64,000 bases of DNA from a virus (IMGVR_UViG_3300028197_001024:10468-74467), one strand, 5' to 3'. Shown: positions 6,493 to 56,881, counted from the stretch's first letter. Translations and numbers: made by a program. Notes: generated by a model from the sequence alone, not told the origin.

Positions 6493-7755
6493 ATGGAAAA
6501 TGTTAAAAAAATAGGTTTCTTTAAACTAGGTAAAGCGATTAAGTTTAATGAAAACAGTTGGAGTGCAATCGGTGGTGATTGTGAACCTAAACAATTAATC
6601 TGTTCAATTGCAAAAAGAAACCCTAATATTGAATATTGGTTATTAAGCCCAAATGATTTAGGTAAGTTTAGAGCTAAACAAAAACCTAAAGTAAATTCTT
6701 TATTTGGCCCTCCTCCTACAGATGAACCCGTAGTTCCTAATAATATTAAGGAATTTCATTCAACTATGAAGGAGAGAAAATCTACTGATGAAACTGTTGA
6801 AATTATTCAAGGTTTAGATTTAGATTTTATTTTCTTTTATACTGGTCCAACAAGTACCGTTAATATTCCAGAGTATATTAATAAGAAAGATGGTACTGGT
6901 CAAGTTAAGTCATTAGACTTCTTTAAGTATTATGCTGCTCCTATTATTAAATCAATGAATGAGTTGGAAAAGAAAGTTCCTATTGTTGGTTTACTTGTTG
7001 ATAACCGTTATATTCTTGCATGTAAAGACTGGGGAATTAATAATAGACCAACTTATTACTTAGCACAAAATACATTTACTAAAGAAGAACAATATTTCTG
7101 TAACCCACCACTAAGAGATGTTAAAACTATTACATCTACTTATGAATATTCAGGCATTGAAACGGTATTCTTATTAGATAAGAAAAGATATGATACTGAT
7201 GAATTATTTAAAATGAAAAAGACTGATTCATTTATGATGTTACAGAATCAAGGTAAAGGTTCAGGTGGAATGGATCGTTGGGATCCAGTAAAAGAATATA
7301 TTGTTGATCAAGAAATAGAGACTGATATTTACGGAAAATGGGATGATGAGATTAAGGAAATGTATCCTAAATGGTTTAAAGGAGAAACGAGAATTGAAAC
7401 AATGACCGATGAATTACTTGGTACTAAATATACATTCTGTGTACCTATTAAAGAAGGTATGGTAACCTCTAAGTATGCCGAAATGCTACACTATGGTATT
7501 ATACCATTCTTACACCCGTCTTACGACACCGACTTTAATGTCTTTCCAGAAGGTCATTTTATTAGATGTAAATCAGCAGAGGATTTAAAAAAGAAAATTG
7601 AATTCTTAAATGCAAACCCAGAGCATTATAAGAAATTATTTTATAACCTACAAGAAAAGTATCTTAAGGATTCTTATTATACCGGAGAACATGTAGACAA
7701 CAAGATCTGGGAATCTTATGAACGAGTAACTAAAACTGAAACTATAAATGTATAA
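6493..7755 (+). CDS. GT-B glycosyltransferase resembling T4 beta-glucosyltransferase (candidate DNA glycosyltransferase)
   Basis: C-terminal DIYGKW...VTSKYAEML..IIPFLHPSYDT...SAEDLKKKIEFL parallels the BGT C-domain; N-terminal KIGFFKLG; operon context. Confidence 0.6.
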   Translation: MENVKKIGFFKLGKAIKFNENSWSAIGGDCEPKQLICSIAKRNPNIEYWLLSPNDLGKFRAKQKPKVNSLFGPPPTDEPVVPNNIKEFHSTMKERKSTDETVEIIQGLDLDFIFFYTGPTSTVNIPEYINKKDGTGQVKSLDFFKYYAAPIIKSMNELEKKVPIVGLLVDNRYILACKDWGINNRPTYYLAQNTFTKEEQYFCNPPLRDVKTITSTYEYSGIETVFLLDKKRYDTDELFKMKKTDSFMMLQNQGKGSGGMDRWDPVKEYIVDQEIETDIYGKWDDEIKEMYPKWFKGETRIETMTDELLGTKYTFCVPIKEGMVTSKYAEMLHYGIIPFLHPSYDTDFNVFPEGHFIRCKSAEDLKKKIEFLNANPEHYKKLFYNLQEKYLKDSYYTGEHVDNKIWESYERVTKTETINV

Positions 7756-8770
7756 TTCCGAAACAAAAATCCTAGTCACTGGTGGTGCTGGGTTCGTTGG
7801 TACAAATTTTATTAACGATTTATTAAATAGAGGTCATAATCCAAAATGCATTGCGGTTATTGATAACATGGAGCACGGTACTTATATTGCAAAGGTACAT
7901 GACCAAATTGAAAATTTTCATAAAGTAGATATTAGAAATCAATATGTAGAAAACATTATCCAAGAGTTTTCACCCGATTATGTTTACCACTTTGCTGGTT
8001 TAGTTTCTATTTATGACTGCCATGAAGATCCGTATGAAGCCGTAGATAATAATATCTTAGGAAGTATTAATGTAATGAATGGTTGTGTAAAGGCAGATGT
8101 AAAAAGAATTATCTTTAGTGAAACTTCTGCAGTATATGAAAATTGTGAAATGCCTAAAGAAGGATTTAACGAAAAGCAATCTGATCCTACTACAATTTAT
8201 TCTACTACTAAAGCATGCCTTGCTCTATTGGCAGAATCATATCAGAGAACTAAAGGTTTAAATTATACTGCATTAAGATACTTTAATGTTGCAGGGCCTC
8301 TACAAGATTATAATAGAACCATCCCACCTGTATTTGCTGGGTTTATTTTAAGAATTAAAGGTAATCATAATCCTATAGTGTTTGGTGATTATATGAAAGC
8401 AAGAGATTATATTGATGTATCTGATGTTAATGCATTTCATATTCTTTGTATGGAAAATGAAAACACTGCAAACCAAACATTTAATTTAGGTACTGGTAAA
8501 ATGACAAACTTAATGGATCTTAAAAATATGATTGGTGAGATTATGGGAGTTGGTGAACCTACATTTGATCACTATGATCCTATTGCAGGTGAAGCTCTAA
8601 ATATTAGAGGAGATATTTCTAAAGCTAAGTCAATGGGATGGGAACCTAAAAAAGATATCAGAGATACGATAAAAGAAACGATAGTTTATCTTGAAGAAGA
8701 AATTAACCAAGGGACTATTGATCCACTAACATTTATGGAAAATTTAGAAATCGAAAAAGTAAAAATTTAA
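7748..8770 (+). CDS. NAD-dependent NDP-sugar epimerase/dehydratase (GalE-like SDR)
   Basis: TGGAGFVG, YSTTK (YxxxK), LRYFNVAG, RDYIDVSD, FNLGTG. Confidence 0.9.
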   Translation: MYNSETKILVTGGAGFVGTNFINDLLNRGHNPKCIAVIDNMEHGTYIAKVHDQIENFHKVDIRNQYVENIIQEFSPDYVYHFAGLVSIYDCHEDPYEAVDNNILGSINVMNGCVKADVKRIIFSETSAVYENCEMPKEGFNEKQSDPTTIYSTTKACLALLAESYQRTKGLNYTALRYFNVAGPLQDYNRTIPPVFAGFILRIKGNHNPIVFGDYMKARDYIDVSDVNAFHILCMENENTANQTFNLGTGKMTNLMDLKNMIGEIMGVGEPTFDHYDPIAGEALNIRGDISKAKSMGWEPKKDIRDTIKETIVYLEEEINQGTIDPLTFMENLEIEKVKI

Positions 8771-8771
8771 T

Positions 8772-10034
8772 ATGGAAAAAGAATTAAAATGGGGTACTAT
8801 GATTCCGTTAATCGGTGGGAGTGCAATAGGTTGTAAAAAATCTGCAGGTAATGAGCCAGCATTTCATTTAAGCTATGAAGCAATGGCTGCTAATGAAAGT
8901 CATATCGAAAAATATTGGCCAGAAGTACCTATGTACAGATTAGATCATGAAGATTTAGATATACCTGAGAAAACATTTCAAGAAGTAGATTATGTAAATT
9001 CTGTTTGCCCGTGTGCAGGTTTGTCACAGTTAAATTCTGCGAAAGGTAGTGCATCATCTAGAGGATCCGATGCGGTTCAAAATCAATGGATGTATAATTC
9101 AGCAGAGTATGTTTTGGAGAATGTTAAACCTAAAGTACTTTGGGGAGAAAATGCACCAGGGCTTTTTACTAAAATGGGAGAAGGTGTTGTTGACAATCTT
9201 AAAGCCATCGGTGAGAAATATGGATATAGCTTTTCATTAATTAAAACTAACACTGAGTTGCATGGAATTCCACAAAGAAGAATAAGAACATTTTATTTCT
9301 TTTGGAATACACCAACAGTTCCTATGTTAAGTTGGAAGTTTAGAGAAAAGAAAAATCTTATTGATTATCTTAATGAAATACCAGAAGATGCTACACAACA
9401 GGATATGTTTATGGTTGAAGGCAAAGTCAGTGATCATTTTAAACCTTACGAATATGTTTTAGAAAAAGAAGGTTTAACGCATTCTGAATTTGCTGCCAAA
9501 TTTAAAAAGGGTACTATCGCTCAATATCTAGAAAAGAATGAATTAATACCTGATTGTATTAAATGGTTAGAAAAACATTATCCTAAAAGAGGGTTTTCAA
9601 ATAAAAAATCTACAAAGACTTTTATTGATATGCTAGAACACCAAGAATACAAAACGAGCCAAGGTTTAGGTTACTGGGATGCATCACCGCATTTCTTCCA
9701 TGATTCTTTTTCTGCCCTTATAGGTAGAAACATGTTTAATGGTGTTCATCCTATAGAAAACAGATATCTTAATGTAAGAGAAATGCTTCACTTAATGGGG
9801 CTACCTTTAGATTTTGGTATTGAAAGTTCAAGGCAAGTAAATCATATTGCACAAAATGTACCAGTTACTACTGCAATGGATATGGCAGATGAAGTAAAGA
9901 AATTTTGTAATGGAGAAGCTAAGATGACAAATTACACCTTCTTAAAACAAGATAATACTAGTCACAAAATAATTGACTCTACTGAAATTGGAGCAGAACC
10001 AAAAAAGAAGTATAAAGTAAAAAGTATAATTTAA
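8772..10034 (+). CDS. DNA cytosine-C5 methyltransferase-fold protein with atypical motif I
   Basis: Motif IV CPCAGLS, VI ENAPGL, VIII PQRRIRTF, IX RYLNVRE, X IAQNVP; motif I reads IPLIGG rather than FxGxGG. Confidence 0.8.
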   Translation: MEKELKWGTMIPLIGGSAIGCKKSAGNEPAFHLSYEAMAANESHIEKYWPEVPMYRLDHEDLDIPEKTFQEVDYVNSVCPCAGLSQLNSAKGSASSRGSDAVQNQWMYNSAEYVLENVKPKVLWGENAPGLFTKMGEGVVDNLKAIGEKYGYSFSLIKTNTELHGIPQRRIRTFYFFWNTPTVPMLSWKFREKKNLIDYLNEIPEDATQQDMFMVEGKVSDHFKPYEYVLEKEGLTHSEFAAKFKKGTIAQYLEKNELIPDCIKWLEKHYPKRGFSNKKSTKTFIDMLEHQEYKTSQGLGYWDASPHFFHDSFSALIGRNMFNGVHPIENRYLNVREMLHLMGLPLDFGIESSRQVNHIAQNVPVTTAMDMADEVKKFCNGEAKMTNYTFLKQDNTSHKIIDSTEIGAEPKKKYKVKSII

Positions 10035-10041
10035 ATTAATT

Positions 10042-11058
10042 ATGAAAGATAAAGGATTAGCCATAGGTATATCAAGCCTAGAGTTTACTAATATCTTATG
10101 TAGTTATTATCCTAAAGGGATCAAAGAAAAATTTGATATCTATTTATTTGTGGATGATACTAAAATAGATTTAGAAAAGCTTCAGTGTATTTTTGAAGAG
10201 CATGATTTAGATATTTTTAAAAATGCAAAGATTATAATTTTAAATGACCTTTATAACCATTACATAGAAAAACATGGTTACGAAGGAAGATCAAAAGAAT
10301 TTCTATTAAGTCATGGCTGCCTCTTTAAAATATTAATGCCTATATACTTAAAGGAAAAATTTGGAGTAAAAAGAACATTAGTATCAGATGATGATGTATT
10401 TATTTTAAACGATCTTAGTTATATGTGGGATGAATATGAAGAGTTTGGCATAAAAAAGGAAAACTTATTTTACATTAGAAATAAAGATAAGTATGAAGTC
10501 ATGGATTGTTTTAACGGTATTTTTGAATCTAATTTTAGCTTAGATGAAATGAATGCCCTTTCCATAAATGCAGGCAATATAATATATGGAGAAGATCCTA
10601 AATTAGAATATTACTTTGAGAGATTTATGAAACACCCATTTATACATCATCAGTATTTTAATTTTACTGGGTATACAAGTTGGACTGTAGAACAAAGATT
10701 CCATCACTTTAATGTTCATAGGTATTTAGCAGAAGGAAGAAAGGTTAAATTTACTGAAAGTAAAGACTTAAGATTAATGCAGAATAGAGACAAGATGATG
10801 AAAGCAGGTACACCACCAGACAAATATCTTAAAGTAGTTGTACCTTCTATAATTCATTATGCAATAGGTGTAAAGAAGCCTCTATGGTTAAATGATTTTT
10901 TACCAGGATTAGAATGGAGATACGGTTTTAAGTATGAAGCAAAATACGAACTTAAAAATATCTTATACGATAAAAATTGGTCACCGCCTTCGTTTAAAAG
11001 TATACAAAAGAATGGATTTATATTAAAAAAGGAATTAAAAACAAAATCAATATTTTAA
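10042..11058 (+). CDS. Putative GT-A fold glycosyltransferase
   Basis: VSDDDVFIL DxD motif, INAG, EQ and IIHY elements as in GT8-like proteins; operon context. Confidence 0.55.
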   Translation: MKDKGLAIGISSLEFTNILCSYYPKGIKEKFDIYLFVDDTKIDLEKLQCIFEEHDLDIFKNAKIIILNDLYNHYIEKHGYEGRSKEFLLSHGCLFKILMPIYLKEKFGVKRTLVSDDDVFILNDLSYMWDEYEEFGIKKENLFYIRNKDKYEVMDCFNGIFESNFSLDEMNALSINAGNIIYGEDPKLEYYFERFMKHPFIHHQYFNFTGYTSWTVEQRFHHFNVHRYLAEGRKVKFTESKDLRLMQNRDKMMKAGTPPDKYLKVVVPSIIHYAIGVKKPLWLNDFLPGLEWRYGFKYEAKYELKNILYDKNWSPPSFKSIQKNGFILKKELKTKSIF

Positions 11059-11084
11059 AAGATAAAATTACAAAAAGAAAATAG

Positions 11085-11882
11085 ATGAAAGATAGAAAAA
11101 GTATACCTGTTATTGGAGTTCCTGTAGTAAATGGAGTTCATTGGGTAAAAAGATTAATGCTATCAGTTGATTACCCTGTAGATAATTTATTTATAATTAA
11201 TAATAATGGAAGAGGAGAAATTAATGAAGAATTAGATAAGTTAAAAAATATATCTAATAAATTTATTAAGAATATACACATTACACATTTACCTAGTAAT
11301 TTAGGAGTCCCGGCAGCTTGGAATTTAATTATTAAATCATTTTTAATGGAGCCTTATTGGATAATTTCTAACCATGATGTTGCCTTTTCACCTGGTTTAT
11401 TAGAAGAATTTTCAAATATGGCTCAGGATAAACAAATAAGTATGATTCATCCTAGAGCAGGTGTATTTGGTGTAGGTACATATGATTTATTTGCTATAAC
11501 TGAAATAGGGGTAAAAACGATAGGATTATTTGATGAAAATTTATATCCTGCTTATGGAGAAGATACTGATTATATAATGAGAGTTCTAAATTTAAATCCA
11601 AAGGTTTGTAGAGGATTGACTTATACTTATTTACATGGAAAAGAAATAGCCGATTGTGTCAATTATGAAAATAATGGTCGACAAACGTCTAAAGAAGAAC
11701 CTCAAATGCAAGAAAAATTAAATAATGTTAATTATAAAAATTACAAATATTTAGATGAAAAATGGGGAGAGCATTGGAGAGGTTTAACTCCTTATAAATT
11801 TCCTTTTAATAATAAAGAATATTCTAATTCTTACACTTCATGGGATATAGATTATATAAGAGAAAAATATTTAGACTTTTAA
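11085..11882 (+). CDS. GT2-like glycosyltransferase
   Basis: NLGVPAAWN, NHDV, IGLFDENLYPAYGEDTDY. Confidence 0.75.
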   Translation: MKDRKSIPVIGVPVVNGVHWVKRLMLSVDYPVDNLFIINNNGRGEINEELDKLKNISNKFIKNIHITHLPSNLGVPAAWNLIIKSFLMEPYWIISNHDVAFSPGLLEEFSNMAQDKQISMIHPRAGVFGVGTYDLFAITEIGVKTIGLFDENLYPAYGEDTDYIMRVLNLNPKVCRGLTYTYLHGKEIADCVNYENNGRQTSKEEPQMQEKLNNVNYKNYKYLDEKWGEHWRGLTPYKFPFNNKEYSNSYTSWDIDYIREKYLDF

Positions 11883-11977: not shown

Positions 11978-12727
11978 ATGGAAACAAAAATTAACAAAAT
12001 TGACGGTTATGAATTAAGTTCATTCGTTCGCAAATTACTTCCAATTGACAAATTCATCTTTATGAAAATCGCAAAAGAGGGTACTGTATCTTCTGTGTAT
12101 TTCCCTGAGAGGGATGCCGTAAAATTGGTTAACACACCTACCTCAGATATATTTGAGGCTGATATTGAAAACCCAGTAAAGGTAAGCTTTTACAATGGTA
12201 CTAAAGTTATTGATGCATTAAGCCATTTTAATGGTGATGTAAAAGGTCGCATTAAATATACTGAATATGATGGAGAATTAATGGCAAGTGATTTTATTTT
12301 AGAAAATGAAGATCTTCAGATTAATTTAGCCTGTACAGATCCTTCGTTATCTTTTATGGAAATGAGTAAAGAAGAAACTGACCGAGCGTTTGATGTGGAT
12401 TCTAAAATGTTTAGTTTTGATTTACTTACTACTCATGTAGATAAAATGAAATCATTATTTAATTTAGATAAAGATGAGGATATCTTTACTCTCTATATTG
12501 GAGAAAAAGGAATTAACATTAAAGGTACTTCTTATGACGCTACGCTATGTCACTCTTATGATTCTGATGTAGAGAAAGGTTCAAAGGTTGTCATATACAA
12601 AAAATATGTTAATCTTCTAGATAAAGAAAATTATAAGGTAAGTGTATGTGAAAACAAGGTTGTTTTCAAATCATTAGATACAAATACACACCTTACTGTG
12701 GCTGTGGCCATTACTGATGAGGATTAA
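11978..12727 (+). CDS. Probable DNA sliding clamp (gp45-like)
   Basis: About 250 aa, acidic and beta-rich, directly upstream of the polymerase; clamp loader is present in the window; no diagnostic motif. Confidence 0.55.
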   Translation: METKINKIDGYELSSFVRKLLPIDKFIFMKIAKEGTVSSVYFPERDAVKLVNTPTSDIFEADIENPVKVSFYNGTKVIDALSHFNGDVKGRIKYTEYDGELMASDFILENEDLQINLACTDPSLSFMEMSKEETDRAFDVDSKMFSFDLLTTHVDKMKSLFNLDKDEDIFTLYIGEKGINIKGTSYDATLCHSYDSDVEKGSKVVIYKKYVNLLDKENYKVSVCENKVVFKSLDTNTHLTVAVAITDED

Positions 12728-12805: not shown

Positions 12806-13924
12806 ATGACAGAGGAATTACAAAAAATCAACGAAGAAGCATCAAAATTCTATAATTACGAACAGGCTGTTAAATTAATGCTTAACTCTATTTACGGTGC
12901 ATTTGGTAATCCTTATTTTTATTTCTTTAATGTTGATATTGCAGAAACTATTACACTCCAAGGTAAAGATGCAATTCTATATACTGAACAATTAGTTAAT
13001 AAGTATTTTAAGGAATTCTGGCATAAGGATTTACCAGCTCATGCTGCTATGGGTATTACTGTAACTGGTAAAATTGAAAAACCTGTAGGTATTTATATTG
13101 ATACAGATTCAGTGTATGTTAAATTTGATGAAGTAATTCAAAAATCAGAAGGCTGGGTTGGTGATGAAAAAGAATTTATACTTAAGCTTTATAAGGTTAG
13201 GTTAAATGGTTACATAGAAAAGATTCTACAAAAATATGCAGATGATAATAATGCAGAAAACTTTTTATCTTTTGAATTAGAAAGTATTGCTAAAAATGCA
13301 ATATGGTTGGCAAAGAAAAAGTATATGCAGAATATAGTTTGGAAGGATCCTGATATTCATTACGATGATCTCTCTAAGATTAGTTCAAAAGGATTTGAAA
13401 TCATTCAGTCATCTACCCCTATTTTTGCAAGAGAAAAACTAAAAGAACTATTAACTTATATCTTTTCTGTTAGTGAATTAGATATGGGAGCCTTTGCTTC
13501 TTTACTTAAAGATGTTAAAAGGCAATTTAGATTAGCCAATGTTGATCAAATTAGTTTTTCAAGAAAAGTAAATAATTATCAAAAGTATATTGTAAATGAT
13601 TATGAGCAATTTGAAATTGCATCAAAATGTCCAATTGGTGTAAGATCTGCAGGCTATCATAATTACTTACTAAATAATTCAGGCAAGAAAGGTAAATATC
13701 AACCACTAGGAAATGGTGAAAAATGTAAAATGTATTTTTCTGAAGATAAGTCATGTGATGTGTTTGCTTATGCACCAGGTGATTTTCCTTATGAGTTCGC
13801 GCCTAAAATAGATTATGATAGGCAATTTGAAAAAACAATATTGGATCCTATAAACAGAGTTGTTACTGCTATGGGTTTTAAAGGATTTAACAGAAATCTT
13901 ATTTACACAACCAGCCTATTTTAA
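12806..13924 (+). CDS. Family B DNA polymerase, C-terminal subunit of a split enzyme (gp43B-like)
   Basis: Motif B KLMLNSIYG, motif C YIDTDS, KKKY, thumb region; no exonuclease domain or motif A. Confidence 0.9.
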   Translation: MTEELQKINEEASKFYNYEQAVKLMLNSIYGAFGNPYFYFFNVDIAETITLQGKDAILYTEQLVNKYFKEFWHKDLPAHAAMGITVTGKIEKPVGIYIDTDSVYVKFDEVIQKSEGWVGDEKEFILKLYKVRLNGYIEKILQKYADDNNAENFLSFELESIAKNAIWLAKKKYMQNIVWKDPDIHYDDLSKISSKGFEIIQSSTPIFAREKLKELLTYIFSVSELDMGAFASLLKDVKRQFRLANVDQISFSRKVNNYQKYIVNDYEQFEIASKCPIGVRSAGYHNYLLNNSGKKGKYQPLGNGEKCKMYFSEDKSCDVFAYAPGDFPYEFAPKIDYDRQFEKTILDPINRVVTAMGFKGFNRNLIYTTSLF

Positions 13925-13940
13925 TAAAAATAAAATAAAG

Positions 13941-15647
13941 ATGAAAAAAGATTATGAATTTGTTAAAAGAATAGTTATGAATAATAAAATAAATAGCCCA
14001 GATAAGACAAACACAAAAGATTTTCATAACCTATGTAAACTAGCATTAGATCATGGTGGTGATATATCAAAATTATTATTACCATCAAGTGAAACCATCG
14101 GTGATGGAATAACTAATGGTTCAATTTTATATCATGAAGGTAAATGGTTATTAAATTTACGAAGAGTCGGTTATTTATTTTATCATAGCGAAAATGAACA
14201 AAAGTTTCCTTCTCCGTGGGGGCCTTTAGTTTATCTAAACCCAGAAGACGATGTCGTATTAAGAACTAAAAATTATGTTTGTGAATTAGACGATAATTTT
14301 GAAGTATCAGATTGGAAAAAAACAAATACCGGTGGGCTAGATAAAAAACCTAAATGGTCTTTTATTGGTTTAGAAGACGCAAGACTTCAGTTTTGGAATA
14401 ACACATTATACCAAACAGGAGTGAGGCGAGATACTACTACAAACGGTGAAGGTAGAATGGAACTATCAACTGTAAAAAAATTAGATACAGAATATTTAGA
14501 AACAGATAGAGTTAGAATAACTCCACCAGATCCTAGGACTCATGCAAATGGAGGTTCTTACTGTGAAAAGAATTGGATGCCAATTAATGATATGCCTAAT
14601 CATTACATTAAATGGACATTACCAACTGAAGTAGTAAAAGTTGATCCTGAAAGAGGCACATCAGAAGTAGTACATTTAGTAGACCAACCACATCTAAAGA
14701 ATATAGTAAGAGACCCAAGAGGATCATCCAATATTATTAAATACAAAGATTACTGGGTAGGTATAATACATGAAGTTGATTTATGGTTTAATGTAGAAAA
14801 GGAAAAAGATTCTATTTATTATCATAGATTTATTGTATGGGATAAGGATTGGAATATTAAATATACTAGTGATACTTTTGATTTTATGACAGCCCGAGTT
14901 GAATTCACATGCGGTTTAGGTTTTGATGGTAAAGATTTTTTAATCCCATTTGGATTCCAGGATAGTACTTCATATTTATTAAAATTACCGACGGCTGTGT
15001 TTGAAAATATTACAAGTATGTCAAACAAAAAGCTTAAACCAAAAAAGACATATGATGAAACTAATAAAAAAAATAAAAATTTATACAATTTCATAAATGA
15101 TCCTTATAATTCAATTAATGCATTTAATTTAGCAGATGAATATTTTAAAGATGGTCATTGGGCGTCAGCCTTAAGTTTTTATTTAAGGTCTGTTGAATTT
15201 ACAGATGATCCTATATTGGAATATGACTCGCATTTTATGGTATGCAGATCTATGGCAAATAGACAAAGCAGACCGATTTGCGAATTAAAGATGTGGTATC
15301 AATTAATAGAACATAGCCCAAATAGACCAGAAGGATACCAGGCAATTTCAAATTATCATTCATGGAGAGGCAATTTTCAAGAAGCTTATTTATGGTCTGA
15401 TATAGGTTTAAGAAATAGTACAGTTGAACCTAAGCAGATAAGTATTAATCAAGGGCCTATAGGATATAAAAAACACTTTGAAATTCAGAAAAATTTATAT
15501 GGTGGTAATGCTTATACTAAAACAGAAGACAAATTAAATCAGCTTAAACATTATCTATCACTTGATGATAAATCTTCTTATCCACCAGATCTTCATACTT
15601 GGATTAAGGAAGAAGCTGAAAAATATAATTTAATAAACAAATCATAA
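13941..15647 (+). CDS. Beta-propeller glycosidase/phosphorylase-like domain plus TPR repeats (start moved to ATG 13941)
   Basis: GLEDARL, EKNWMP, RGSS, EFTCGL motifs (GH130/GH43-like propeller); C-terminal TPR-like ALSFYLR, PNRPEGY. Confidence 0.6.
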   Translation: MKKDYEFVKRIVMNNKINSPDKTNTKDFHNLCKLALDHGGDISKLLLPSSETIGDGITNGSILYHEGKWLLNLRRVGYLFYHSENEQKFPSPWGPLVYLNPEDDVVLRTKNYVCELDDNFEVSDWKKTNTGGLDKKPKWSFIGLEDARLQFWNNTLYQTGVRRDTTTNGEGRMELSTVKKLDTEYLETDRVRITPPDPRTHANGGSYCEKNWMPINDMPNHYIKWTLPTEVVKVDPERGTSEVVHLVDQPHLKNIVRDPRGSSNIIKYKDYWVGIIHEVDLWFNVEKEKDSIYYHRFIVWDKDWNIKYTSDTFDFMTARVEFTCGLGFDGKDFLIPFGFQDSTSYLLKLPTAVFENITSMSNKKLKPKKTYDETNKKNKNLYNFINDPYNSINAFNLADEYFKDGHWASALSFYLRSVEFTDDPILEYDSHFMVCRSMANRQSRPICELKMWYQLIEHSPNRPEGYQAISNYHSWRGNFQEAYLWSDIGLRNSTVEPKQISINQGPIGYKKHFEIQKNLYGGNAYTKTEDKLNQLKHYLSLDDKSSYPPDLHTWIKEEAEKYNLINKS

Positions 15648-16875: not shown

Positions 16876-17155
16876 TACTGCAAAACTTAAAGTAAAGCAC
16901 GTATTAGGAAATCATACAACATTGCCTAACTATCCAGATGCTGAGGATATTATATATGAACTAATACGAGATTATTGTGGAAAGGTTGCAAAGGAGATTA
17001 AATTTACTAATGTATCCTTAAAGAAAAAGTATAGCCTAGATGACAAAAAGGCTAATGCTATAATTATGCAACTTAGAAACGATAAGATAATTAAAGTATC
17101 ATTATCTAATTCTGCTTATACAACGTATGAAGTAATAAAAAATCCATATAAATGA
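16856..17155 (+). CDS. Hypothetical protein (possible winged helix)
   Basis: ORF overlapping both neighbours; basic, with helix-helix-strand pattern. Confidence 0.5.
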   Translation: MLPKNLNTAKLKVKHVLGNHTTLPNYPDAEDIIYELIRDYCGKVAKEIKFTNVSLKKKYSLDDKKANAIIMQLRNDKIIKVSLSNSAYTTYEVIKNPYK

Positions 17156-17877
17156 TATATTTAAACCCTACCGCTACATGGCATGAACCTTTGCCTTTTA
17201 CACAAAATGATTATGAAAATTTTAAATTTAAGTTTAATGGCTTAAAGGGTGTAAGTAAAAATTATTCACAGTGTTATCAAGATTTATTTGTTTTGGCAGC
17301 TCATAATGGCAAAAGAAACGGAACATTTTTAGAAATAGGTGGTGGTGCTCCATTTTACGGAAATAACACTGCTCTTTTATCAGAATTTGGATGGTCAGGG
17401 ATATCATTAGAGTGGGATGAATCTCTATGTAACGACTGGAAGGCATTTAGACCTGACAGTAATATTCTTCATGCCAATGCGCTTGAGTTTGATTATTATA
17501 CTGAATGTAAAAAAATATCTAAAGATAATCATATTGATTATTTACAATTAGATATTGACCCTGCGGTTAATACTTATAATCTACTAGAGTTAATACCTTT
17601 TGATAAAATTACTTTTGGTGTAATAACCTATGAACATGATTGGTACATAGAGACTAGCGAATACCGAGATTTATCCAGAAAGTTTTTAATTGATAAAGGC
17701 TATATTTTAATTGTTGCAAATATATCACCAGATGATGATAGCCCATATGAAGATTGGTGGATACATAAAGATTGTATTAATTCTTTAAATGAAAACATAA
17801 AAATTGATACTAATAAGCATGTATTATTCGCAAAAGATTATATGATAGAAAAACCTAATTTATCTACACTTAAGTAA
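17152..17877 (+). CDS. FkbM-family SAM-dependent methyltransferase
   Basis: YSQCYQD, GTFLEIGG, NNTALL, GWSGISLE, IDYLQLDID, EDWW. Confidence 0.75.
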   Translation: MIYLNPTATWHEPLPFTQNDYENFKFKFNGLKGVSKNYSQCYQDLFVLAAHNGKRNGTFLEIGGGAPFYGNNTALLSEFGWSGISLEWDESLCNDWKAFRPDSNILHANALEFDYYTECKKISKDNHIDYLQLDIDPAVNTYNLLELIPFDKITFGVITYEHDWYIETSEYRDLSRKFLIDKGYILIVANISPDDDSPYEDWWIHKDCINSLNENIKIDTNKHVLFAKDYMIEKPNLSTLK

Positions 17878-19214: not shown

Positions 19215-19712
19215 ATGTGGGGTAAAAAGAAAAAGCCTAAATTAGATGAGAATGGAAAACCTATTCCACCTAAATTAGCAGATAAAGATAAAATCTTTAA
19301 TAATACATACGGTGATCAAGATGTAACCGAAAACAAAGTAAACTTCACTGTTGCTGCTACTTATGGTGATAGTATGGATCCGGATGATAGGATGCATTAT
19401 GAATTATTAATAAAGAAAATTGATAAGATTATAAAAGGTAGTGAATACGAGCATTTAAATGAAGCAACACCAGAAGGTGTTATTAAAAAATTAAATAAGG
19501 TACAAATTAATCGAGTATATTCTCATATTATTGAACATTTAGGTGATGGATATACAAGAGTAGATTTATTTAGTGTCATATCAGATTACTTTGATGTATT
19601 CCCTAATAAATTTTATAACTCACTTTCTAATAAATTTAAGGATGAACTTATTAAAGAATTAGATGACAAATATAATATCCTAGAAAAAAGAAAAATCAGA
19701 AAATTATTTTAA
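19215..19712 (+). CDS. Hypothetical protein, possibly a gp33-like late-transcription coactivator
   Basis: Helical C-terminus LSNKFKDELIKEL weakly recalls gp33; ends in KIRKLF (putative clamp-binding tail). Confidence 0.35.
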   Translation: MWGKKKKPKLDENGKPIPPKLADKDKIFNNTYGDQDVTENKVNFTVAATYGDSMDPDDRMHYELLIKKIDKIIKGSEYEHLNEATPEGVIKKLNKVQINRVYSHIIEHLGDGYTRVDLFSVISDYFDVFPNKFYNSLSNKFKDELIKELDDKYNILEKRKIRKLF

Positions 19713-26019: not shown

Positions 26020-26496
26020 ATGAGCATCAAAAAGGTAAAGCCTACTTCTAAGTCCGGATTTAAGCAAGGGTATTATAATCCTATAAATCCTCAAAAGTAT
26101 ATAGGACCTCATCCTATCATATATAGAAGTAGTTGGGAAAGAAAATTTTGCCATTGGTGCGACCACAATGAAGATGTAATAAAATGGGCATCTGAACCTT
26201 TTTCTATAAAATATTTTAATATGCTAGATAAAAAGTTTCATAATTATTATCCTGATTTTTATATTAAAATGGATAAGGACGGAATAACAGAAGAATATGT
26301 AGTTGAAATAAAACCAAAGGCACAATTACAAAAACCAAAGGCACCAAAAAGAAAAACAGCAAAGGCATTAAAAAACTTTCAACATGGTTATGAAACTTAT
26401 GTTAGAAACCTTTGTAAAACTGAAGCATTAAATAAAATGGCTAAACAAAGAAATTTTAAAGTAATGCTTTTAACAGAAGACTCAAAATTATTCTAA
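26020..26496 (+). CDS. gp4: Head completion nuclease (gp4, TnsA-like)
   Basis: YRSSWERKF, WASE, YYPDF, VEIKP. Confidence 0.88.
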   Translation: MSIKKVKPTSKSGFKQGYYNPINPQKYIGPHPIIYRSSWERKFCHWCDHNEDVIKWASEPFSIKYFNMLDKKFHNYYPDFYIKMDKDGITEEYVVEIKPKAQLQKPKAPKRKTAKALKNFQHGYETYVRNLCKTEALNKMAKQRNFKVMLLTEDSKLF

Positions 26497-36226: not shown

Positions 36227-37450
36227 ATGAAAAAAACAGGCAGACATACATTTGTTATAGATGGAAATTATTTTCTATTTAGGACCTTATATGTAATTCC
36301 TAGCAGATCTAAAAAAGCAGGTCTATTAGGTACAGATGAAGACGTACAAACTTTTGTCAAAAAATTGGCAACTGACTTTGCATATCAAATCAGATTATTT
36401 GAAGGTCTTATCGATAAGGTTGTTTGGACGGTAGATTCAAGATCATGGAGAAAGGACTTTTACCCAGAGGCAGAATATAAAGGTAATCGTAAACAAAATG
36501 ATGCTCTTAACTGGGAGAACTTTTCAAAAGCAACAGCAGACTTTATTTCTATCCTATCTAAGCAAGGTGTTATTATTTCTAAAATTGACGGTGCTGAAGG
36601 AGATGATCTAATGTATGCATGGAATACTGAATGTCTTGCAAATGACAAATCAGTTATTATGTTTACTGGTGATAGAGACTTAGTTCAATTAGTAGATAAG
36701 AGTACAAATAATAATACTCATACTATTCTATTTTCCCCAGCTCATAAAAAATTATATACTTACCAAGGTTTTTCTGAATGGATGGATTCTCAAACTGAAG
36801 AAGAACAATCTGATGATATATTTGATGTACTAAAAACTTCTGTATCACCAGAGAATCAGGCTAAGAAATTACTTAAAGCATTGGTCGCAAAGAAAAAGGT
36901 TTCTATTATAGAAGTTGACCCTGAAGACTTTCGTTTCCGTAAAGTACTCACAGGAGATGCTGGTGATAATGTACCACCTGCTTACTATTATAAAAAAGGT
37001 AATAGGAGATACGGAATCAGCGAAAATAAGGCAACTGCTATCATCGCTGAGTTCAAAGAAAAGCATGGTCACTTATCTCATATGTATCTTTACAATGATG
37101 AGTATATTACTGACCTTGCAAATATGACTGTAAGAGTTATGAATGCAAAACATATGAGTAGAGAACAGATTATTACTAATCTAAAATCCAACGTCAATCT
37201 TATGGTACTTGCTGCTGAATCAATACCAGAAGGTATCTTAGATGAAATGTTTAAATCAGTAGAATCAAAAATGAATGTAAAAGGTTTGCAATTAAAAACG
37301 ATATCTACAATGAAATCTATTTTAGAGAATACTGAATACTCAAAAGAAACTGATAGTTCTTTTAAGGCTTCGTTCTTTAAAGATGATGATAGTGATTCTG
37401 ATGATATGTCTTTTATAAAAGGTGGTAAAAAACAAGATAAGATTTTTTAA
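36227..37450 (+). CDS. rnh: 5'-3' exonuclease / RNase H (T4 Rnh, FEN-like)
   Basis: IDGNY, SWRKDFY, YKGNR, EGDD, TGDRDLVQL, GDAGDNVP. Confidence 0.88.
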   Translation: MKKTGRHTFVIDGNYFLFRTLYVIPSRSKKAGLLGTDEDVQTFVKKLATDFAYQIRLFEGLIDKVVWTVDSRSWRKDFYPEAEYKGNRKQNDALNWENFSKATADFISILSKQGVIISKIDGAEGDDLMYAWNTECLANDKSVIMFTGDRDLVQLVDKSTNNNTHTILFSPAHKKLYTYQGFSEWMDSQTEEEQSDDIFDVLKTSVSPENQAKKLLKALVAKKKVSIIEVDPEDFRFRKVLTGDAGDNVPPAYYYKKGNRRYGISENKATAIIAEFKEKHGHLSHMYLYNDEYITDLANMTVRVMNAKHMSREQIITNLKSNVNLMVLAAESIPEGILDEMFKSVESKMNVKGLQLKTISTMKSILENTEYSKETDSSFKASFFKDDDSDSDDMSFIKGGKKQDKIF

Positions 37451-47927: not shown

Positions 47928-48935
47928 ATGAGTAGTCACGAAGACAACATTAAGAAAGAATTTGAGGCGGCTGAAGGTATAGTAGATACTAAGGCTGAAG
48001 TAAAAACAACAAATGCCGATGGTAAAATTACCGACTTAGGCAAGGTAGATACTAGTAGAGGTTCTGGTGTAACATCAATAGATGATCCAGAAATACAAAG
48101 AATACAATCTTTGACTGGTTATGTTAAATTAGATTTATCAATTTTTCCATCAGGTGGACAATTTTATAGAGAAGATTTTGAAATTCATATCAGAGCCGCA
48201 AGAGTTGGTGAGATTAGAGAATTTTCTACATTAGATGAAGAAAACATTTTAGATGTGGATGAAAAGCTAAACTCACTTCTAGTGAACTGTACAAAAATTA
48301 TGTATGGTAACCAAAGAGGATCGTATAGAGATGTATTAGAAGAAGATAGAATATATCTAATCCTATCTATTAGGGAACTAACCTTTAAGGATGGTGAAAA
48401 TAAACTGATGATGCCAGTTGGAAAAAAGAATTGTAAAACAGGAACTTGTAAATCACAAGAATCCGTCGAACTTAGAACAGGTAATCTTCAATTTAATGAT
48501 AAAGATGATTTATTAGAAAAGTATTATGATTATGAAAATAAATGTTTTACTATTCCAACTAAAAGTCATGGATCATTAACTATTGCACCACCAACAATTG
48601 GTGTAATGAGAGCTATTACAGATTGGATACGAAAAAGAGAAGAAGAAAATAAACCTTGGGATAAATCATCACTAGGTATTTTACCTTACATTCAAAGAGA
48701 ATGGCGAGGATTTAATGATAAAGAAATATTTTCAGCCATTACAAATTTTCAAGGTTGGGATGCTAGCAAATTTTCAGTTATTTATAGATTAGTTGAAAAA
48801 GCAAAAATAGGAGTAAAGCCGGAATTTGCATTTCCGTGTGAAAGCTGTGGTGAGGAGGTCGCAGTCCCGCTCACGTTTCCCGGCGGGATCAAAGCTCTCT
48901 TTATTATTCAAGATATCTCTTCTGAACTTTTATAA
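47928..48935 (+). CDS. Baseplate hub / tail assembly chaperone (gp26/gp51-like)
   Basis: FPSGGQFY, EEDRIYLILSIR, PPTIG, CESCG zinc pair; between the tube and tape measure genes. Confidence 0.6.
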   Translation: MSSHEDNIKKEFEAAEGIVDTKAEVKTTNADGKITDLGKVDTSRGSGVTSIDDPEIQRIQSLTGYVKLDLSIFPSGGQFYREDFEIHIRAARVGEIREFSTLDEENILDVDEKLNSLLVNCTKIMYGNQRGSYRDVLEEDRIYLILSIRELTFKDGENKLMMPVGKKNCKTGTCKSQESVELRTGNLQFNDKDDLLEKYYDYENKCFTIPTKSHGSLTIAPPTIGVMRAITDWIRKREEENKPWDKSSLGILPYIQREWRGFNDKEIFSAITNFQGWDASKFSVIYRLVEKAKIGVKPEFAFPCESCGEEVAVPLTFPGGIKALFIIQDISSELL

Positions 48936-49185
48936 AGTACGAGTACTATTATTAGAAAAGTTGCATCTCCAGCCTTCAGAGCTGGATTTGCTTCCTTTCT
49001 ATGAGTATGAATATACTTTAGAAATGTTTAATGAGATTCTCAAGGATCGTAACGACGAGGATAAACAGAATACTCAATCCTATTCGGATAAATATAATAC
49101 GGACAGCATGTCTAAGTCTATGAATAAACAGATGAGCTCATTTAAAACTCCATCTATGCCAAAGATTAGTATGCCGAAGTTCTGA
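48879..49185 (+). CDS. Downstream tail-chaperone segment in the +1 frame, probably reached by frameshift; boundary approximate
   Basis: LLNFYKVRVLLLEKLHLQPSELDLLPFYEYE resembles small T4-like hub-assembly proteins; no suitable own start. Confidence 0.5.
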
Positions 49186-52579: not shown

Positions 52580-52624
52580 AATATAACAGAGAGATTCTGA
52601 AATAGTATAGTTTAAAAGTATAAT

Positions 52625-53422: not shown

Positions 53423-53449
53423 ATTGTTAATAACTTTTAGAAAAAAGAT

Positions 53450-53498
53450 CTCATTTTATTTTCAATTCCCAATTAAATTTATTATATTTATAATATAA
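53450..53498 (+). promoter_or_regulatory. Putative early (host-sigma) promoter, copy 1 of a roughly 48-bp repeat
   Basis: CTCATTT..TTTCAATTCCCAA.TAA.TTTATTATATTTA.A.TATAA is shared with 62679-62726. Confidence 0.6.
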
Positions 53499-53514
53499 TT
53501 AAACAATACGGAAT

Positions 53515-53811: not shown

Positions 53812-54044
53812 TGGCAATAACAACAAAACCTATGCCTGGATCTGAAATGATCCATGTAGATTTAAGTGGACCAGATGGTAATGCATTTGCATTAATTGGA
53901 CTGGCCCAAAAATTAGCAAAACAACTTCACTATCAACCTGGTGAGAGAGGAGAACTCACAGCAGAAATGATGGGTGGAGATTACGATAACCTGTTAGAAA
54001 TCTTCGATAAACATTTTGGAGAATTTGTAACATTACATAAATAA
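53811..54044 (+). CDS. Hypothetical phage protein (GPDGNAF motif)
   Basis: DLSGPDGNAFALIG...GDYDNLL. Confidence 0.65.
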   Translation: MAITTKPMPGSEMIHVDLSGPDGNAFALIGLAQKLAKQLHYQPGERGELTAEMMGGDYDNLLEIFDKHFGEFVTLHK

Positions 54045-54045
54045 T

Positions 54046-54231
54046 ATGAAAGAAACGACACCATACCGAATGATCACCGAAGAAGAACACATTGAAGAAA
54101 TTCTAACCGAAGCAAATGCGCATGGCTTAAGAGCCGAGGTAAAAGCATATGCTGAAAACTTATTAAATGAATCTCCAGAGATGGATCCTATCGATGCCTA
54201 TACACATGGGTTTGAAGAATGGATTAAATAA
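54046..54231 (+). CDS. Hypothetical protein
   Basis: 61-aa acidic ORF; resembles 60095..60274. Confidence 0.55.
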   Translation: MKETTPYRMITEEEHIEEILTEANAHGLRAEVKAYAENLLNESPEMDPIDAYTHGFEEWIK

Positions 54232-54234
54232 ATT

Positions 54235-54381
54235 ATGGAAAAAGATAACGAAGACAAAAAACTTAAAGAAGTTAATTTAACTCAACAAGAATGGTTTGAT
54301 GCTCTTCGTGTACCTACACCTGTAAGAAATAAGAAAAAATATAGGAGAAAGAAAAAACATAAAGGTAAAGATGATGAATAG
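54235..54381 (+). CDS. Small basic protein, 48 aa; not in the ORF track
   Basis: MEKDNEDKKLKEVNLTQQEWFDALRVPTPVRNKKKYRRKKKHKGKDDE fills the gap between neighbours. Confidence 0.55.
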   Translation: MEKDNEDKKLKEVNLTQQEWFDALRVPTPVRNKKKYRRKKKHKGKDDE

Positions 54382-54718
54382 CATATTAGAAAAAATAAGT
54401 TGGTGGACTCGTAAATGGAATTATAGTTTTGATTTACTCCAGATAGATTTACGTGATAACCATGGCTCTTGGGGTTTTAAGGTTTTTAATTTTAAGACTA
54501 ATTTCTATGATCATTCTCTTTTGGCTTTTTACTTTAGGTTGCCTAATAAAACAACAGTTAAGCACTTTCATATAGATCATATAGATTTACTTTATTTAAA
54601 TAGGCCTCTTTATAAAGTTTACGATAAACTAAATGATAGAGAATTATGGAATCCTAATTCCTTTTCAAAATTAGATAAAATTAAATTAGCAATCTTAGAT
54701 AAAATATTTAATAGATGA
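54371..54718 (+). CDS. Hypothetical protein
   Basis: ORF in the small-gene cluster. Confidence 0.5.
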   Translation: MMNSILEKISWWTRKWNYSFDLLQIDLRDNHGSWGFKVFNFKTNFYDHSLLAFYFRLPNKTTVKHFHIDHIDLLYLNRPLYKVYDKLNDRELWNPNSFSKLDKIKLAILDKIFNR

Positions 54719-54960
54719 TAAATAGTGGAAAAGAATGGGATTGGATAGATACTAAAGTTCCTATGAATGTTATTAGGGATGAAATGAAATGGGTAGAAAA
54801 AGTTTTAACTCATAAAGATAATAACAATTTACATTACCCAGCCCTTAAACAGCTTATAAATAATTTTTATAATAAATGGGCAAATAAAGATAATAAAACA
54901 ATTGTGAATGTTTACCGATCATATCTTAAGTCAATTTTAAGAAGTGAATTTGGTAGGTAA
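54715..54960 (+). CDS. Hypothetical protein
   Basis: ATGA-coupled ORF. Confidence 0.5.
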   Translation: MINSGKEWDWIDTKVPMNVIRDEMKWVEKVLTHKDNNNLHYPALKQLINNFYNKWANKDNKTIVNVYRSYLKSILRSEFGR

Positions 54961-54961
54961 T

Positions 54962-54988
54962 TAAACCTTTATTAATTTATCAATATAA
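54962..54988 (+). promoter_or_regulatory. Putative middle promoter
   Basis: TAAAC-N17-TATAA. Confidence 0.6.
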
Positions 54989-55003
54989 AAATAAATTTAA
55001 AGT

Positions 55004-56881
55004 ATGGCAGTGAGCATTGAAAAGAAATACCAGAAACTTACCGACACAGAACATGTATTACTCAGACCAGGTATGTATATTGGTTCTGTTAAGCCACATA
55101 CTGAAGAAGTTTATTTATTGGATAGAAGAAGCTGGAAATTAATACCTAAAGAAATTACCTATAATCCTGGATTCTTAAAACTCTTTGATGAGATCGTATC
55201 TAACTCTGTTGATGAACATAAAAGAAATCCTAAACTTAACCAAGTAAAAATTAACATTGATATTAAAACTAATAAAATATCAATTTGGGATAATGGTGGT
55301 ATTCCTGTAGAAATTCATAAAGAGTATAATGAATGGGTACCTGAAATGATTTTTAGTAATCTAAAGACAGGTAGTAATTTTGATGATACTGAAGAGAGAA
55401 CTGTTGTAGGAACTAATGGTGTAGGTAGTACATTAACAAATATATTTAGTAAAGAATTTACAATTGATACTTGTGATAAAAAGAAAAGATTTACACAAAC
55501 CTTTTCAAATAATATGGCAAAGAAAACTAAACCTGCTATAAAACCACAAAAGAAAGGATTTACTGAAATTTCATACATTGCAGATTTTAAAAGATTTGGT
55601 ATGAGTAAGATTGATAAAGCATCAATCCAAATGATTGAAAAAAGACTTTATGATATTGCTGCATGTAATCCTAAATTAAAAATCTGGCTAAACGGTGATT
55701 CTATTACATTTAAATCTTTTAAAGAATACTCTGAATTATATACCACACCAGTATTTTATGAACAATCAGAAAATTGGCAAATAGGTATAGGTCATTCTAC
55801 CTCAGGGTTTAAAGCTATCTCATTTGTAAATTCTGTTGAAACAAAAGATGGCGGTAAACATGTAGATAACATTACTTGGCAAATTACACAATTCCTTAGA
55901 GATAAGATTAAAAGAAAGCATAGAGTTGATGTAAAGCCATCAGAATTAAAAAATCACTTGTACCTTTTTATTAACAGTACAATTATTAATCCAGCATTTT
56001 CGTCTCAGACAAAAGAGAAGCTTATTACTGAACCTAAAGACTTTGGAAGTATTCATGTACTTTCCGATAAGACATTAAGACAAGTTTTAAATTCAGAAAT
56101 AATTCAATCAGTATTAGATTGGATTAAACAAAAGAAAGACGCTGAGGAAAGATCTAAGCTTAGGAGATTAAATAAAGGTTTAGATAAGAAAAAGGTTGTA
56201 AAGCTAATTGATGCAAAAAAGAGAGGTGACAGAAGTAACTGTACTCTTGCAATTTTTGAAGGTGATTCTGCATCATCTGCATTTAGGCAATATAGAAATC
56301 CAAATATGCAAGGTGCATTTCCACTTAGAGGTAAATTCGTAAACGTAAGAGAATCTATCCCTTCTAAGGTTGTACAAAATAAAGAAGTACAATCTCTTAT
56401 GGCTGCATTAGGTTTAAAGATAGGTCATGAGCCAAAAGATTTAAGATATGGTAAAATATTATTATATACCGATGCTGATGTAGATGGCAATTCTATTTCT
56501 GCCTTATTAATTAATTTCTTAGGTAAGTATTGGCCAGAGTTATTTGAACAAGGAAGGGTGTTAAAAGTAGAGACACCTTTAATGGTTGCTAAAAAGGGTA
56601 AAGATACATTAAGTTTTTATTCTGATGATGATTATAAAGAATGGGAATCTAAACAAAAGTCATTATCTTCATGGTCAATTGAATATAAGAAAGGTCTTGC
56701 TGCATTGGAGAATACAGAATACCAAGAAATTATTAGTAATCCTAAAACATTTATTTTAACAAAAGATAAAGATTTTGAAAATACATTAGATACATGGTTC
56801 TCTAAAGATTCTGAGCCAAGAAAGAAAAAGATTTTAGGAGAAGAGTTAATTTATAGCACAAACAAAAAATCATTATTTTGA
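55004..56881 (+). CDS. gp39: Type IIA topoisomerase ATPase/TOPRIM subunit (gp39 and gp60 fused)
   Basis: HVLLRPGMYIGS, EIVSNSVD, GTNGVGS, EGDSA, PLRGK, DADVDG, KGL. Confidence 0.95.
   Translation: MAVSIEKKYQKLTDTEHVLLRPGMYIGSVKPHTEEVYLLDRRSWKLIPKEITYNPGFLKLFDEIVSNSVDEHKRNPKLNQVKINIDIKTNKISIWDNGGIPVEIHKEYNEWVPEMIFSNLKTGSNFDDTEERTVVGTNGVGSTLTNIFSKEFTIDTCDKKKRFTQTFSNNMAKKTKPAIKPQKKGFTEISYIADFKRFGMSKIDKASIQMIEKRLYDIAACNPKLKIWLNGDSITFKSFKEYSELYTTPVFYEQSENWQIGIGHSTSGFKAISFVNSVETKDGGKHVDNITWQITQFLRDKIKRKHRVDVKPSELKNHLYLFINSTIINPAFSSQTKEKLITEPKDFGSIHVLSDKTLRQVLNSEIIQSVLDWIKQKKDAEERSKLRRLNKGLDKKKVVKLIDAKKRGDRSNCTLAIFEGDSASSAFRQYRNPNMQGAFPLRGKFVNVRESIPSKVVQNKEVQSLMAALGLKIGHEPKDLRYGKILLYTDADVDGNSISALLINFLGKYWPELFEQGRVLKVETPLMVAKKGKDTLSFYSDDDYKEWESKQKSLSSWSIEYKKGLAALENTEYQEIISNPKTFILTKDKDFENTLDTWFSKDSEPRKKKILGEELIYSTNKKSLF

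Follow-up and report, generated by a model that had tools for sequence, protein, structure and literature searches.

A marine T4-like phage locus and its shared C-terminal tail

The stretch IMGVR_UViG_3300028197_001024:10468-74467, hereafter the window, comprises 64 kb out of a 74.5-kb linear contig (G000:C1:10468-74467) from an uncultured marine T4-like phage; its gene set is that of a T4-like myophage, with a G+C content of ~30% and all genes on one strand. Within the window, proteins of replication, transcription and DNA modification end in a common short tail, x-[L/I/V]-F-COOH, mostly placed behind a variable Lys-rich linker, and the gene at 11978 encodes a predicted sliding clamp on which such tails could dock (Table 1). 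The phage itself stands apart from better-studied relatives: its DNA polymerase is <35% identical to those of Pelagibacter and Synechococcus T4-like phages, there is no cultured close relative, and the sole named one is an uncultured 462-kb assembly (LR756500.1) whose polymerase is 59% identical.

On the replication side, the C-terminal half of the family-B DNA polymerase ends [STNAG][LV]F in 54/54 distinct orthologues, the RNase H of the flap endonuclease (FEN) family carries K[IM]F behind a variable Lys-rich linker in all 44 of its 44 distinct orthologues, on a C-terminal extension of ~100 residues, and the topoisomerase II large subunit closes with [KN]SLF after a variable 6-residue linker (17/17 distinct orthologues). 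The polymerase is split into an N-terminal half of 468 residues, which lies upstream of the window (L191:5498-6901, on G000:C1), and a C-terminal half of 372 residues, the two being ~16 kb apart; the N-terminal half has no tail, which is confined to the half with the thumb end.

On the transcription side, the open reading frame (ORF) at 19215 ends xKLF or xRLF in 51/51 distinct orthologues, down to 39% identity. The initial annotation had proposed a role for it like that of T4 gp33, a late-transcription co-activator in which a small helical domain that binds the RNA polymerase beta-flap precedes a C-terminal clamp-binding tail. Indeed, when its AlphaFold2 model, with a predicted local distance difference test (pLDDT) of 70, was compared with 48,161 chains using VIA-align, T4 gp33 (3tbi_A) ranked first; the match is nonetheless weak (Z 5.8, root-mean-square deviation (rmsd) 2.7, 71/71 residues) and covers helical model residues 90-163. 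No sequence similarity was found in a profile search against PDB sequences or with hhalign against T4 gp33, and a Foldseek fold search gave no match. A gp33-like identity is plausible but unproven. The sigma-70-family factor at 63277 keeps [LI]F in 13 orthologues, with variable trailing residues, as [KS]LF followed by three residues.

Further proteins carry the motif, or may carry it, in a less typical form. In the deoxynucleoside monophosphate (dNMP) kinase, QL[NES][LIM]F is followed by 1-3 variable residues in 15/16 distinct orthologues. A thymidylate-synthase-like protein (60261-61169) has AIF three residues from its end in 94% of orthologues (SDAIF[RGL][ND]I), which could either belong to the C-terminus of the thymidylate synthase fold or be one more copy of the motif near a protein end. 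Of the 21 orthologues of the head-completion protein gp4, 86% have the tail, but here the residues around it are acidic and not basic, and its membership of the set is uncertain. Considering that it matches the TnsA-like endonuclease N domain, and would thus be nuclease-like, its ..SKLF tail may be no mere exception.

The C-termini given in the initial annotation for the polymerase half, topoisomerase II, RNase H/FEN, ORF 19215, ORF 10042, the C5-cytosine methyltransferase and gp4 are exact, and its KQLNIF does lie near the end of the dNMP kinase. The motif KPKVNSLF that it described in the GT-B-type glycosyltransferase is likewise there, whilst its position needs amending: the full motif spans 6682-6705, and 6688-6705 encodes KVNSLF.

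Table 1. Features of the window, in window coordinates, with tails or motifs and family matches
Feature	Coordinates	Strand	Tail or motif	Remarks
GT-B-type glycosyltransferase	6493..7755	+	internal KPKVNSLF, 6682-6705, before variable Pro-rich loop	weak Pfam Glyco_trans_1_2
C5-cytosine methyltransferase homologue	8772..10034	+	..KYKVKSII, 10014-10031	tail on C-terminal extension; Pfam DNA_methylase 2.5e-19
Unannotated enzyme, possibly GT8-like/GT-A glycosyltransferase	10042..11058	+	..KTKSIF, 11038-11055	
Predicted sliding clamp, two-domain PCNA/gp45-type fold; proposed docking hub	11978..12727	+		249 residues; from predicted structure
Family-B DNA polymerase, C-terminal half (palm/thumb)	12806..13924	+	..YTTSLF, 13904-13921	Pfam DNA_pol_B 1.8e-19; PHROG DNA polymerase 2.8e-67
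gp33-like candidate late-transcription co-activator	19215..19712	+	..KIRKLF, 19692-19709	
gp4 head-completion homologue	26020..26496	+	..DSKLF, 26479-26493	PHROG head closure 7e-44; Pfam TnsA-like endonuclease N 1.3e-15
RNase H / 5'-3' exonuclease (FEN family)	36227..37450	+	..KQDKIF, 37430-37447	Pfam 5_3_exonuc_N 8e-16; PHROG exonuclease 3e-23
Topoisomerase II large subunit (gp39-like)	55004..56881	+	..NKKSLF, 56861-56878	PHROG 543 at 1e-192
dNMP (thymidylate-kinase-like) kinase	59485..60102	+	near-terminal KQLNIF, 60073-60090, then NDV	PHROG thymidylate kinase 2e-13
Sigma-70-family factor (regions 2 and 4)	63277..63915	+	near-terminal MKLF, 63892-63903, then AEA	Pfam Sigma70_r2 8e-10, r4_2 7e-8
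UvsX	15679	+		
gp41-type helicase	17921	+		
gp47 / gp46	19714, 20789	+		
Topoisomerase II subunits	55004, 56972	+		
Nucleotide kinases, thymidylate-synthase-like enzyme, sigma-70-family factor	58984-63915	+		
Sugar-nucleotide and glycosyltransferase cluster	53-11882	+		

Enrichment and conservation of the tail

Related loci were gathered from IMG/VR with three anchors, namely the polymerase half (80 loci), topoisomerase II (28) and RNase H (80), and their plus-strand ORFs were clustered into families, 85 of which hold at least five distinct sequences. Seven of these 85 families end in [LIVM]F, each in 86-100% of members: the polymerase C-terminal half, ORF 19215, RNase H, ORF 10042, the topoisomerase II large subunit, gp4 and a membrane-like family of 150 residues. 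As [LIVM]F makes up 1.12% of dipeptides in the same proteomes, this is a clear excess (P = 5e-5), which stands at P = 4e-4 when the membrane-like family is set aside (6/85); on this contig alone, 6/83 ORFs end in [LIVM]F (binomial P = 3.5e-4). Without the [LIVM]F families, terminal F is back at background, with 5/78 against 5.1%. We discount the 150-residue family, which ends xLIF, as a false positive, since its C-terminal third is hydrophobic and membrane-like; the protein starts at ~63939 and runs off the end of the contig (63939-64000; complete at L089:18163-18612), and it has no family match.

The pattern of conservation is that of a fixed end on a drifting linker. Terminal F has an entropy of 0 bits in the polymerase, ORF 19215, RNase H, topoisomerase and ORF 10042, among orthologues 39-99% identical, whilst the linker positions reach 1-2.8 bits (1.3-2.8 bits at positions -3 to -12 of ORF 10042); the termini of UvsX, gp41 and gp47, taken as controls, stand at ~2 bits. 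That the tails would be conserved in homologues and commoner than chance had been anticipated in the initial annotation, and both hold. The codons of the tail vary synonymously (TTA/CTT/CTA/CTG for one residue, TTT/TTC for the other) and all three stop codons are used, so that selection acts at the level of the peptide rather than of a DNA motif; this rules out a DNA-level explanation such as a conserved terminator or promoter lying over the stop codon.

The shared tail is not a matter of chance. An accidental or compositional origin can be imagined: at ~30% G+C, codons for K, L, I and F abound, and the ends of genes may be richer still in A+T. It could appeal to the shortness of a motif that was defined after the fact, to the matches of gp4 and the membrane-like protein, and to the existence of three families ending in a conserved KF. 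We find this explanation scarcely credible, however, given that the enrichment was measured against the proteome's own dipeptide frequency, that terminal F stays fixed while adjacent residues change and codons vary synonymously, that it returns to background without the [LIVM]F families, and that in other lineages, too, modification enzymes of unrelated kinds bear the tail.

Other kinds of conserved ends were also encountered. The three families with a fully conserved KF, seen where ~0.4 would be expected by chance, are a GT2 glycosyltransferase (3284-4180, ..KGKF), a haloacid dehalogenase (HAD) phosphatase (4515-5066, ..LVKF) and a 119-residue ORF (48826-49185, ..MPKF); two of them sit in the sugar/modification cluster, and this ending may be a weak variant of the tail. 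The small subunit of ribonucleotide reductase (RNR; L191:6977-7969) ends DWDDIW, with EDIF, DTDF or DDLF in orthologues, and this acidic-aromatic tail is an internal contrast to the basic xLF tails, being of the known type of C-terminal peptide that docks on the large subunit. In two cultured relatives, Synechococcus phage ACG-2014e and Pelagibacter phage Mosig, looking for the polymerase-type 'FFG' tail was little informative: just one match lay in another gene, the gp26 baseplate hub, the rest being on the wrong strand.

Amongst the modification enzymes, ORF 10042 has a terminal [LIVM]F in 27/27 distinct locus orthologues, down to 45% identity, and 56/62 homologues of at least 300 residues from a 5.8-billion-protein database end in it, with three more ending in another hydrophobic pair; the residues ahead are merely Lys-rich. 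In an exhaustive profile search, matches to remote homologues of ~290-300 residues stop near profile position 285-290, and these proteins have neither the C-terminal extension nor the tail, which places the tail of ORF 10042 on a lineage-specific extension. The initial annotation called it a GT-A glycosyltransferase, and D116-D117-D118 is invariant, with a language-model similarity of 0.96 to the GT8, Nucleotid_trans and Mannosyl_trans3 clusters; ORF 10042, 17 aligned orthologues and ten remote homologues nevertheless matched no Pfam or PHROGs family, and a profile search against the PDB was also empty, so that a GT-A fold, which is Rossmann-like and has a DxD motif, is only a lead.

The C5-cytosine methyltransferase follows a looser rule. 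Orthologues in the clade end KYKVxS[IVT][IF] (SII, STF or SVI), and among homologues of 395-445 residues 53/62 have a hydrophobic end pair, eight of them the canonical xLF (TSLF, KSLF, LKLF and others), compared with 3/45 of the longer forms; methyltransferases of distant phages end ..KSKKLF, ..KSKNLF and ..RSKVLF. As the remote homologues of ORF 10042 and the long methyltransferase homologues are without it, the tail is an add-on in both enzymes.

The GT-B-type glycosyltransferase has no terminal tail; an internal KPK[VA]x[SP]LFG is conserved in its orthologues and followed by a variable Pro-rich stretch. A paralogue family (~31% identity) has KIF or KIY at the same loop position together with a 25-residue C-terminal extension that ends ..KPKATSLF, ..KAKPTLF, ..NNKLF or ..KKPALF, and C-terminal ..KPKATSLF, ..KTKSLF and ..KAKSLF are found across paralogues and distant homologues. 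Two arguments pull apart here: the aromatic residue at the loop position of a paralogue that has a separate C-terminal tail suggests that the loop may be structural, whereas the near identity of KPKVNSLF to KPKATSLF argues that the internal and terminal motifs are equivalent. The internal copy is an uncertain docking peptide. The initial annotation had taken all three enzymes as bearers of the motif; this holds well for ORF 10042 and, through the xLF ends of distant phages, for the methyltransferase, and less well for the GT-B with its internal and possibly structural copy.

Beyond this clade, loci retrieved with a distant methyltransferase as query show methyltransferase and GT-B genes adjacent to each other in several further lineages, and most of these proteins have canonical tails. 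The methyltransferase and GT-B end ..KSKKLF and ..KTKSLF in L241/L242, and ..RSKVLF and ..QAKSLF in L248; in L245/L246 the GT-B (..KAKSLF) and methyltransferase (..KSKNLF) are accompanied by a GT25 enzyme ending ..NKQLF (Pfam 1.9e-13). Two methyltransferases of L240 end ..TCLF and ..KTLF, alongside an AGT-like protein ending ..TKLF (PF11440, 4e-5, below cut-off), and in L194/L195 the methyltransferase has ..TSLF or ..TQLF while the GT-B ends ..NIGVRI, without the tail. A polymerase search over five other-lineage records gave clear matches in two (G001 and G002), with C-terminal halves ending ..AKKLF and ..RTQLF, the former adjoining a 252-residue clamp-like protein. The LR756500.1 assembly has a polymerase with the end ..SSSLF and a gp33-like protein with ..KKLF. 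By the reading of these termini, several unrelated enzyme families carry a polymerase-type tail, K[S/K/N]LF being the form on C5-methyltransferase, GT-B, GT25 and AGT-like enzymes.

A predicted clamp and its candidate clients

If the tail is a docking peptide, what would it dock on? The initial annotation named the product of 11978 as a sliding clamp, and the structural prediction bears this out: the AlphaFold2 model (pLDDT 87, predicted template modelling score 0.81) is a two-domain clamp, in which topologically similar beta-alpha-beta domains are joined by an interdomain loop and whose 249 residues fall in the range of 230-260 for such clamps, and with Foldseek its top matches are all PCNA-type clamps (E ~1e-10), at least 500 clamp chains being matched at E <= 1e-3. 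Against H. volcanii PCNA, VIA-align gives a Z of 19.7 and an rmsd of 2.8 over 219 aligned residues. No sequence match was found in Pfam, PHROGs or a PDB sequence profile search, nor with hhalign against T4 gp45. The predicted fold is that of a PCNA-type sliding clamp, and by analogy the ring is presumably a trimer with three pockets. The best-conserved stretches of the protein are its interdomain segment (residues 119-138) and its C-terminus, regions which in PCNA make up the peptide-binding site.

The clamp gene adjoins the C-terminal half of the polymerase on its upstream side, and the genes for the methyltransferase, ORF 10042, a GT2 glycosyltransferase, the clamp and the polymerase half are contiguous on one strand. 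The two polymerase halves are separated by RNR genes and by those for the sugar pathway, modification enzymes and clamp; in LR756500.1 the C-terminal half is split once more, around a 567-residue ORF (L259:9416-12816). Some of the neighbouring genes are sporadic: the GT2 enzyme (11085-11882, ending ..KYLDF) has a homologue in 0/80 polymerase-anchored loci and a 241-residue ORF at 17152-17877 has a match in just one of the 80, both being strain-specific accessory genes inside otherwise syntenic regions. A 595-residue ORF at 13860-15647, between the polymerase C-terminal half and UvsX, has no Pfam or PHROG match, occurs in just 14/80 related loci and may represent an insertion, either mobile or accessory.

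Taking these elements together, we consider it probable, reasoning by analogy with characterised clamps, that the tail is a clade-specific putative clamp-binding peptide through which enzymes of replication, late transcription and DNA modification are brought to the clamp. The form [K/R-rich variable linker]-[S/K/T/N]-[L/I/V]-F-COOH would be the clade's version of a clamp-docking peptide, its terminal hydrophobic pair inserting in a pocket under the interdomain loop, as in T4/RB69 gp45 and PCNA. The polymerase half would dock for processivity, FEN/RNase H for the processing of Okazaki fragments, and the gp33-like ORF 19215, perhaps with the sigma factor at 63277, for clamp-activated late transcription; the topoisomerase II large subunit would be a further client. 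Encoded just upstream of the clamp gene, ORF 10042, the C5-methyltransferase homologue and, less certainly, the GT-B through its internal copy of the motif would also be clients, acting on freshly replicated DNA on clamps at the fork or left behind it. The sequences and models themselves show the motif, its enrichment, its selective conservation as a peptide, its repeated gain by unrelated enzymes and the clamp fold; from these we infer a role for the clamp as binding partner, a trimeric ring, and DNA as what the glycosyltransferases modify.

A different hub might of course collect the same tails: the host beta clamp (DnaN), the phage single-strand DNA-binding protein or a helicase loader. For DnaN, the relevant peptide is the often C-terminal beta-clamp-binding motif QL[S/D]LF, reportedly described by Dalrymple et al. 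in 2001, which also has the form QLxLxL. The end of the pentapeptide, [S/D]-L-F, resembles the last three residues of the tails, and the dNMP kinase, with its QL[NES][LIM]F, is the only protein to match it in full, the others agreeing with the last two or three positions. The Q at -5 is, however, absent from the polymerase, topoisomerase, RNase H, ORF 19215, ORF 10042 and the methyltransferase. The phage also has a clamp of its own beside its polymerase, of the two-domain PCNA type and unlike the three-domain DnaN, and the polymerase itself carries the tail; like that of T4, it would be expected to work with the clamp of its own phage. We therefore regard another hub as unlikely, and docking on the phage clamp as the better account.

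Could the tails be signals rather than docking peptides? Basic residues followed by a hydrophobic end resemble the C-motif 2 recognised by ClpX, and several tails have this look (KRKIRKLF, KKKYKVKSII, KKQDKIF), so that they might be degradation or remodelling tags of the type of MuA ..RRKKAI, or else regulate in another way when early enzymes are active. Yet the tail of the polymerase, NLIYTTSLF, lacks the basic character, the invariant feature is a terminal aromatic, typical of clamp pockets, and the set of proteins fits known clamp clients (polymerase, FEN, gp33-like) and not a timing class. This makes a tag a most improbable explanation, further from the evidence than another hub.

Several observations nonetheless weigh against recruitment to the phage clamp. 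The motif is short, with two or three fixed residues, and the structural protein gp4 and the membrane-like 150-residue protein likewise end in [LI]F. Some of the proposed clients are imperfect: the methyltransferase of the window ends in II and not [LIV]F, the motif of the GT-B is internal and a paralogue combines an aromatic at that loop position with a separate tail, and ORF 19215 resembles gp33 weakly, over helices, and shows no sequence similarity to it. Among the proteins of the 74-kb fragment that were scanned, none was a clamp loader. Nor do the tails reproduce any of the established epitopes: they are basic, shorter and of the form x[S/K][L/I/V]F where the T4 consensus is the acidic [ST]LDFL[FYL]; they have no conserved Q at -7 and one aromatic only, in departure from the PCNA-interacting protein (PIP) box Qxx[LIM]xx[FY][FY]; and, dNMP kinase apart, they lack both the Q and the L at -4 of the bacterial QLxLF motif.

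One may go a step further and picture the PCNA-like ring as the organiser of a 'hypermodified-DNA factory', in which at least four glycosyltransferase families, C5-methyltransferase-like enzymes, topoisomerase II, FEN and the late-transcription co-activator would each independently have gained the docking tail of the polymerase. Precursor enzymes may belong to it too (the dNMP kinase through QLxLF, the thymidylate-synthase-like protein through AIF), such that precursor supply, replication, base modification and late transcription would be coupled on the clamp. We offer this larger picture tentatively, and hold it doubtful as a whole.

Should the tails bind the clamp, the implications would reach beyond this phage. 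DNA hypermodification in abundant marine T4-like phages would be wired to the replisome by a simple, transferable peptide, providing a mechanism to shield nascent DNA from restriction without delay, and the case for glycosyltransferases that cannot otherwise be assigned, like ORF 10042, having DNA as their substrate would be strengthened. The polymerase's own tail would become a cheap sequence marker for new DNA-acting enzymes in metagenomes and uncultured phages, and two unexpected clamp clients, the topoisomerase II large subunit and the dNMP kinase, would be predicted. This would also be a cleaner system for testing replication-coupled modification than T4 alpha-glucosyltransferase and gp45.

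Comparison with known systems

The closest parallel lies in T4 and RB69, where gp43, gp33 and gp55 each have a short hydrophobic peptide at or near the C-terminus behind a variable linker, as seen here on the polymerase, the gp33-like protein and the sigma factor. Read from NC_000866, the T4 tails are ..ASLDFLFG for gp43, ..NTLDFLL for gp33 and ..SLDFLYEAND for gp55, in agreement with the initial annotation, which had cited all three as C-terminal clamp epitopes; in T4 these termini are clamp-binding epitopes that are interchangeable among clients (PMC2988020). The near-terminal motif of the sigma factor at 63277, with its three trailing residues, parallels that of gp55. T4 alpha-glucosyltransferase (which ends ..QFDIITK), beta-glucosyltransferase and RNase H do not carry the shared T4 epitope. 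Indeed, the list of candidate clients is far wider here than in T4, extending to FEN, topoisomerase II, the C5-methyltransferase, glycosyltransferases and the dNMP kinase. The proposed clamp itself is structurally closest to PCNA entries among the matches listed, and has no detectable sequence similarity to gp45.

For the coupling of modification to the clamp, the precedent is T4 alpha-glucosyltransferase, whose interaction with gp45 was reportedly described by Sommer et al. in 2004. The binding invoked in the initial annotation is corroborated by co-purification of the two proteins in vitro after overnight incubation (NAR 2026, PMC13216743), although the bioRxiv preprint version had reported no binding, in disagreement with the published one. 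The enzyme bound gp45 despite a C-terminal His tag, and whether glucosylation is alpha or beta is, according to the paper, mainly determined by something other than this interaction (PMC13216743). What we propose is alike in tying a phage DNA glycosyltransferase to the phage clamp, with modification alongside replication; it is unlike T4 in that the tether would be the polymerase's own motif, shared by several unrelated modifiers.

Cellular systems offer further parallels. DNMT1, a cytosine methyltransferase, is brought to replicated DNA through PCNA, and archaeal FEN-1 is a flap endonuclease with a C-terminal PIP peptide, much as we observe a C-terminal peptide on the phage FEN; PDB 1rxm is among the top fold matches of the 11978 model. 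Full-text literature searches found no description of the tail on modification enzymes, apart from the interaction of T4 alpha-glucosyltransferase with gp45. Clamp-binding terminal peptides are thus well known, and the extension lies in their reach: to phage C5-methyltransferase-like enzymes, to several glycosyltransferase families, to topoisomerase II and perhaps to a dNMP kinase.

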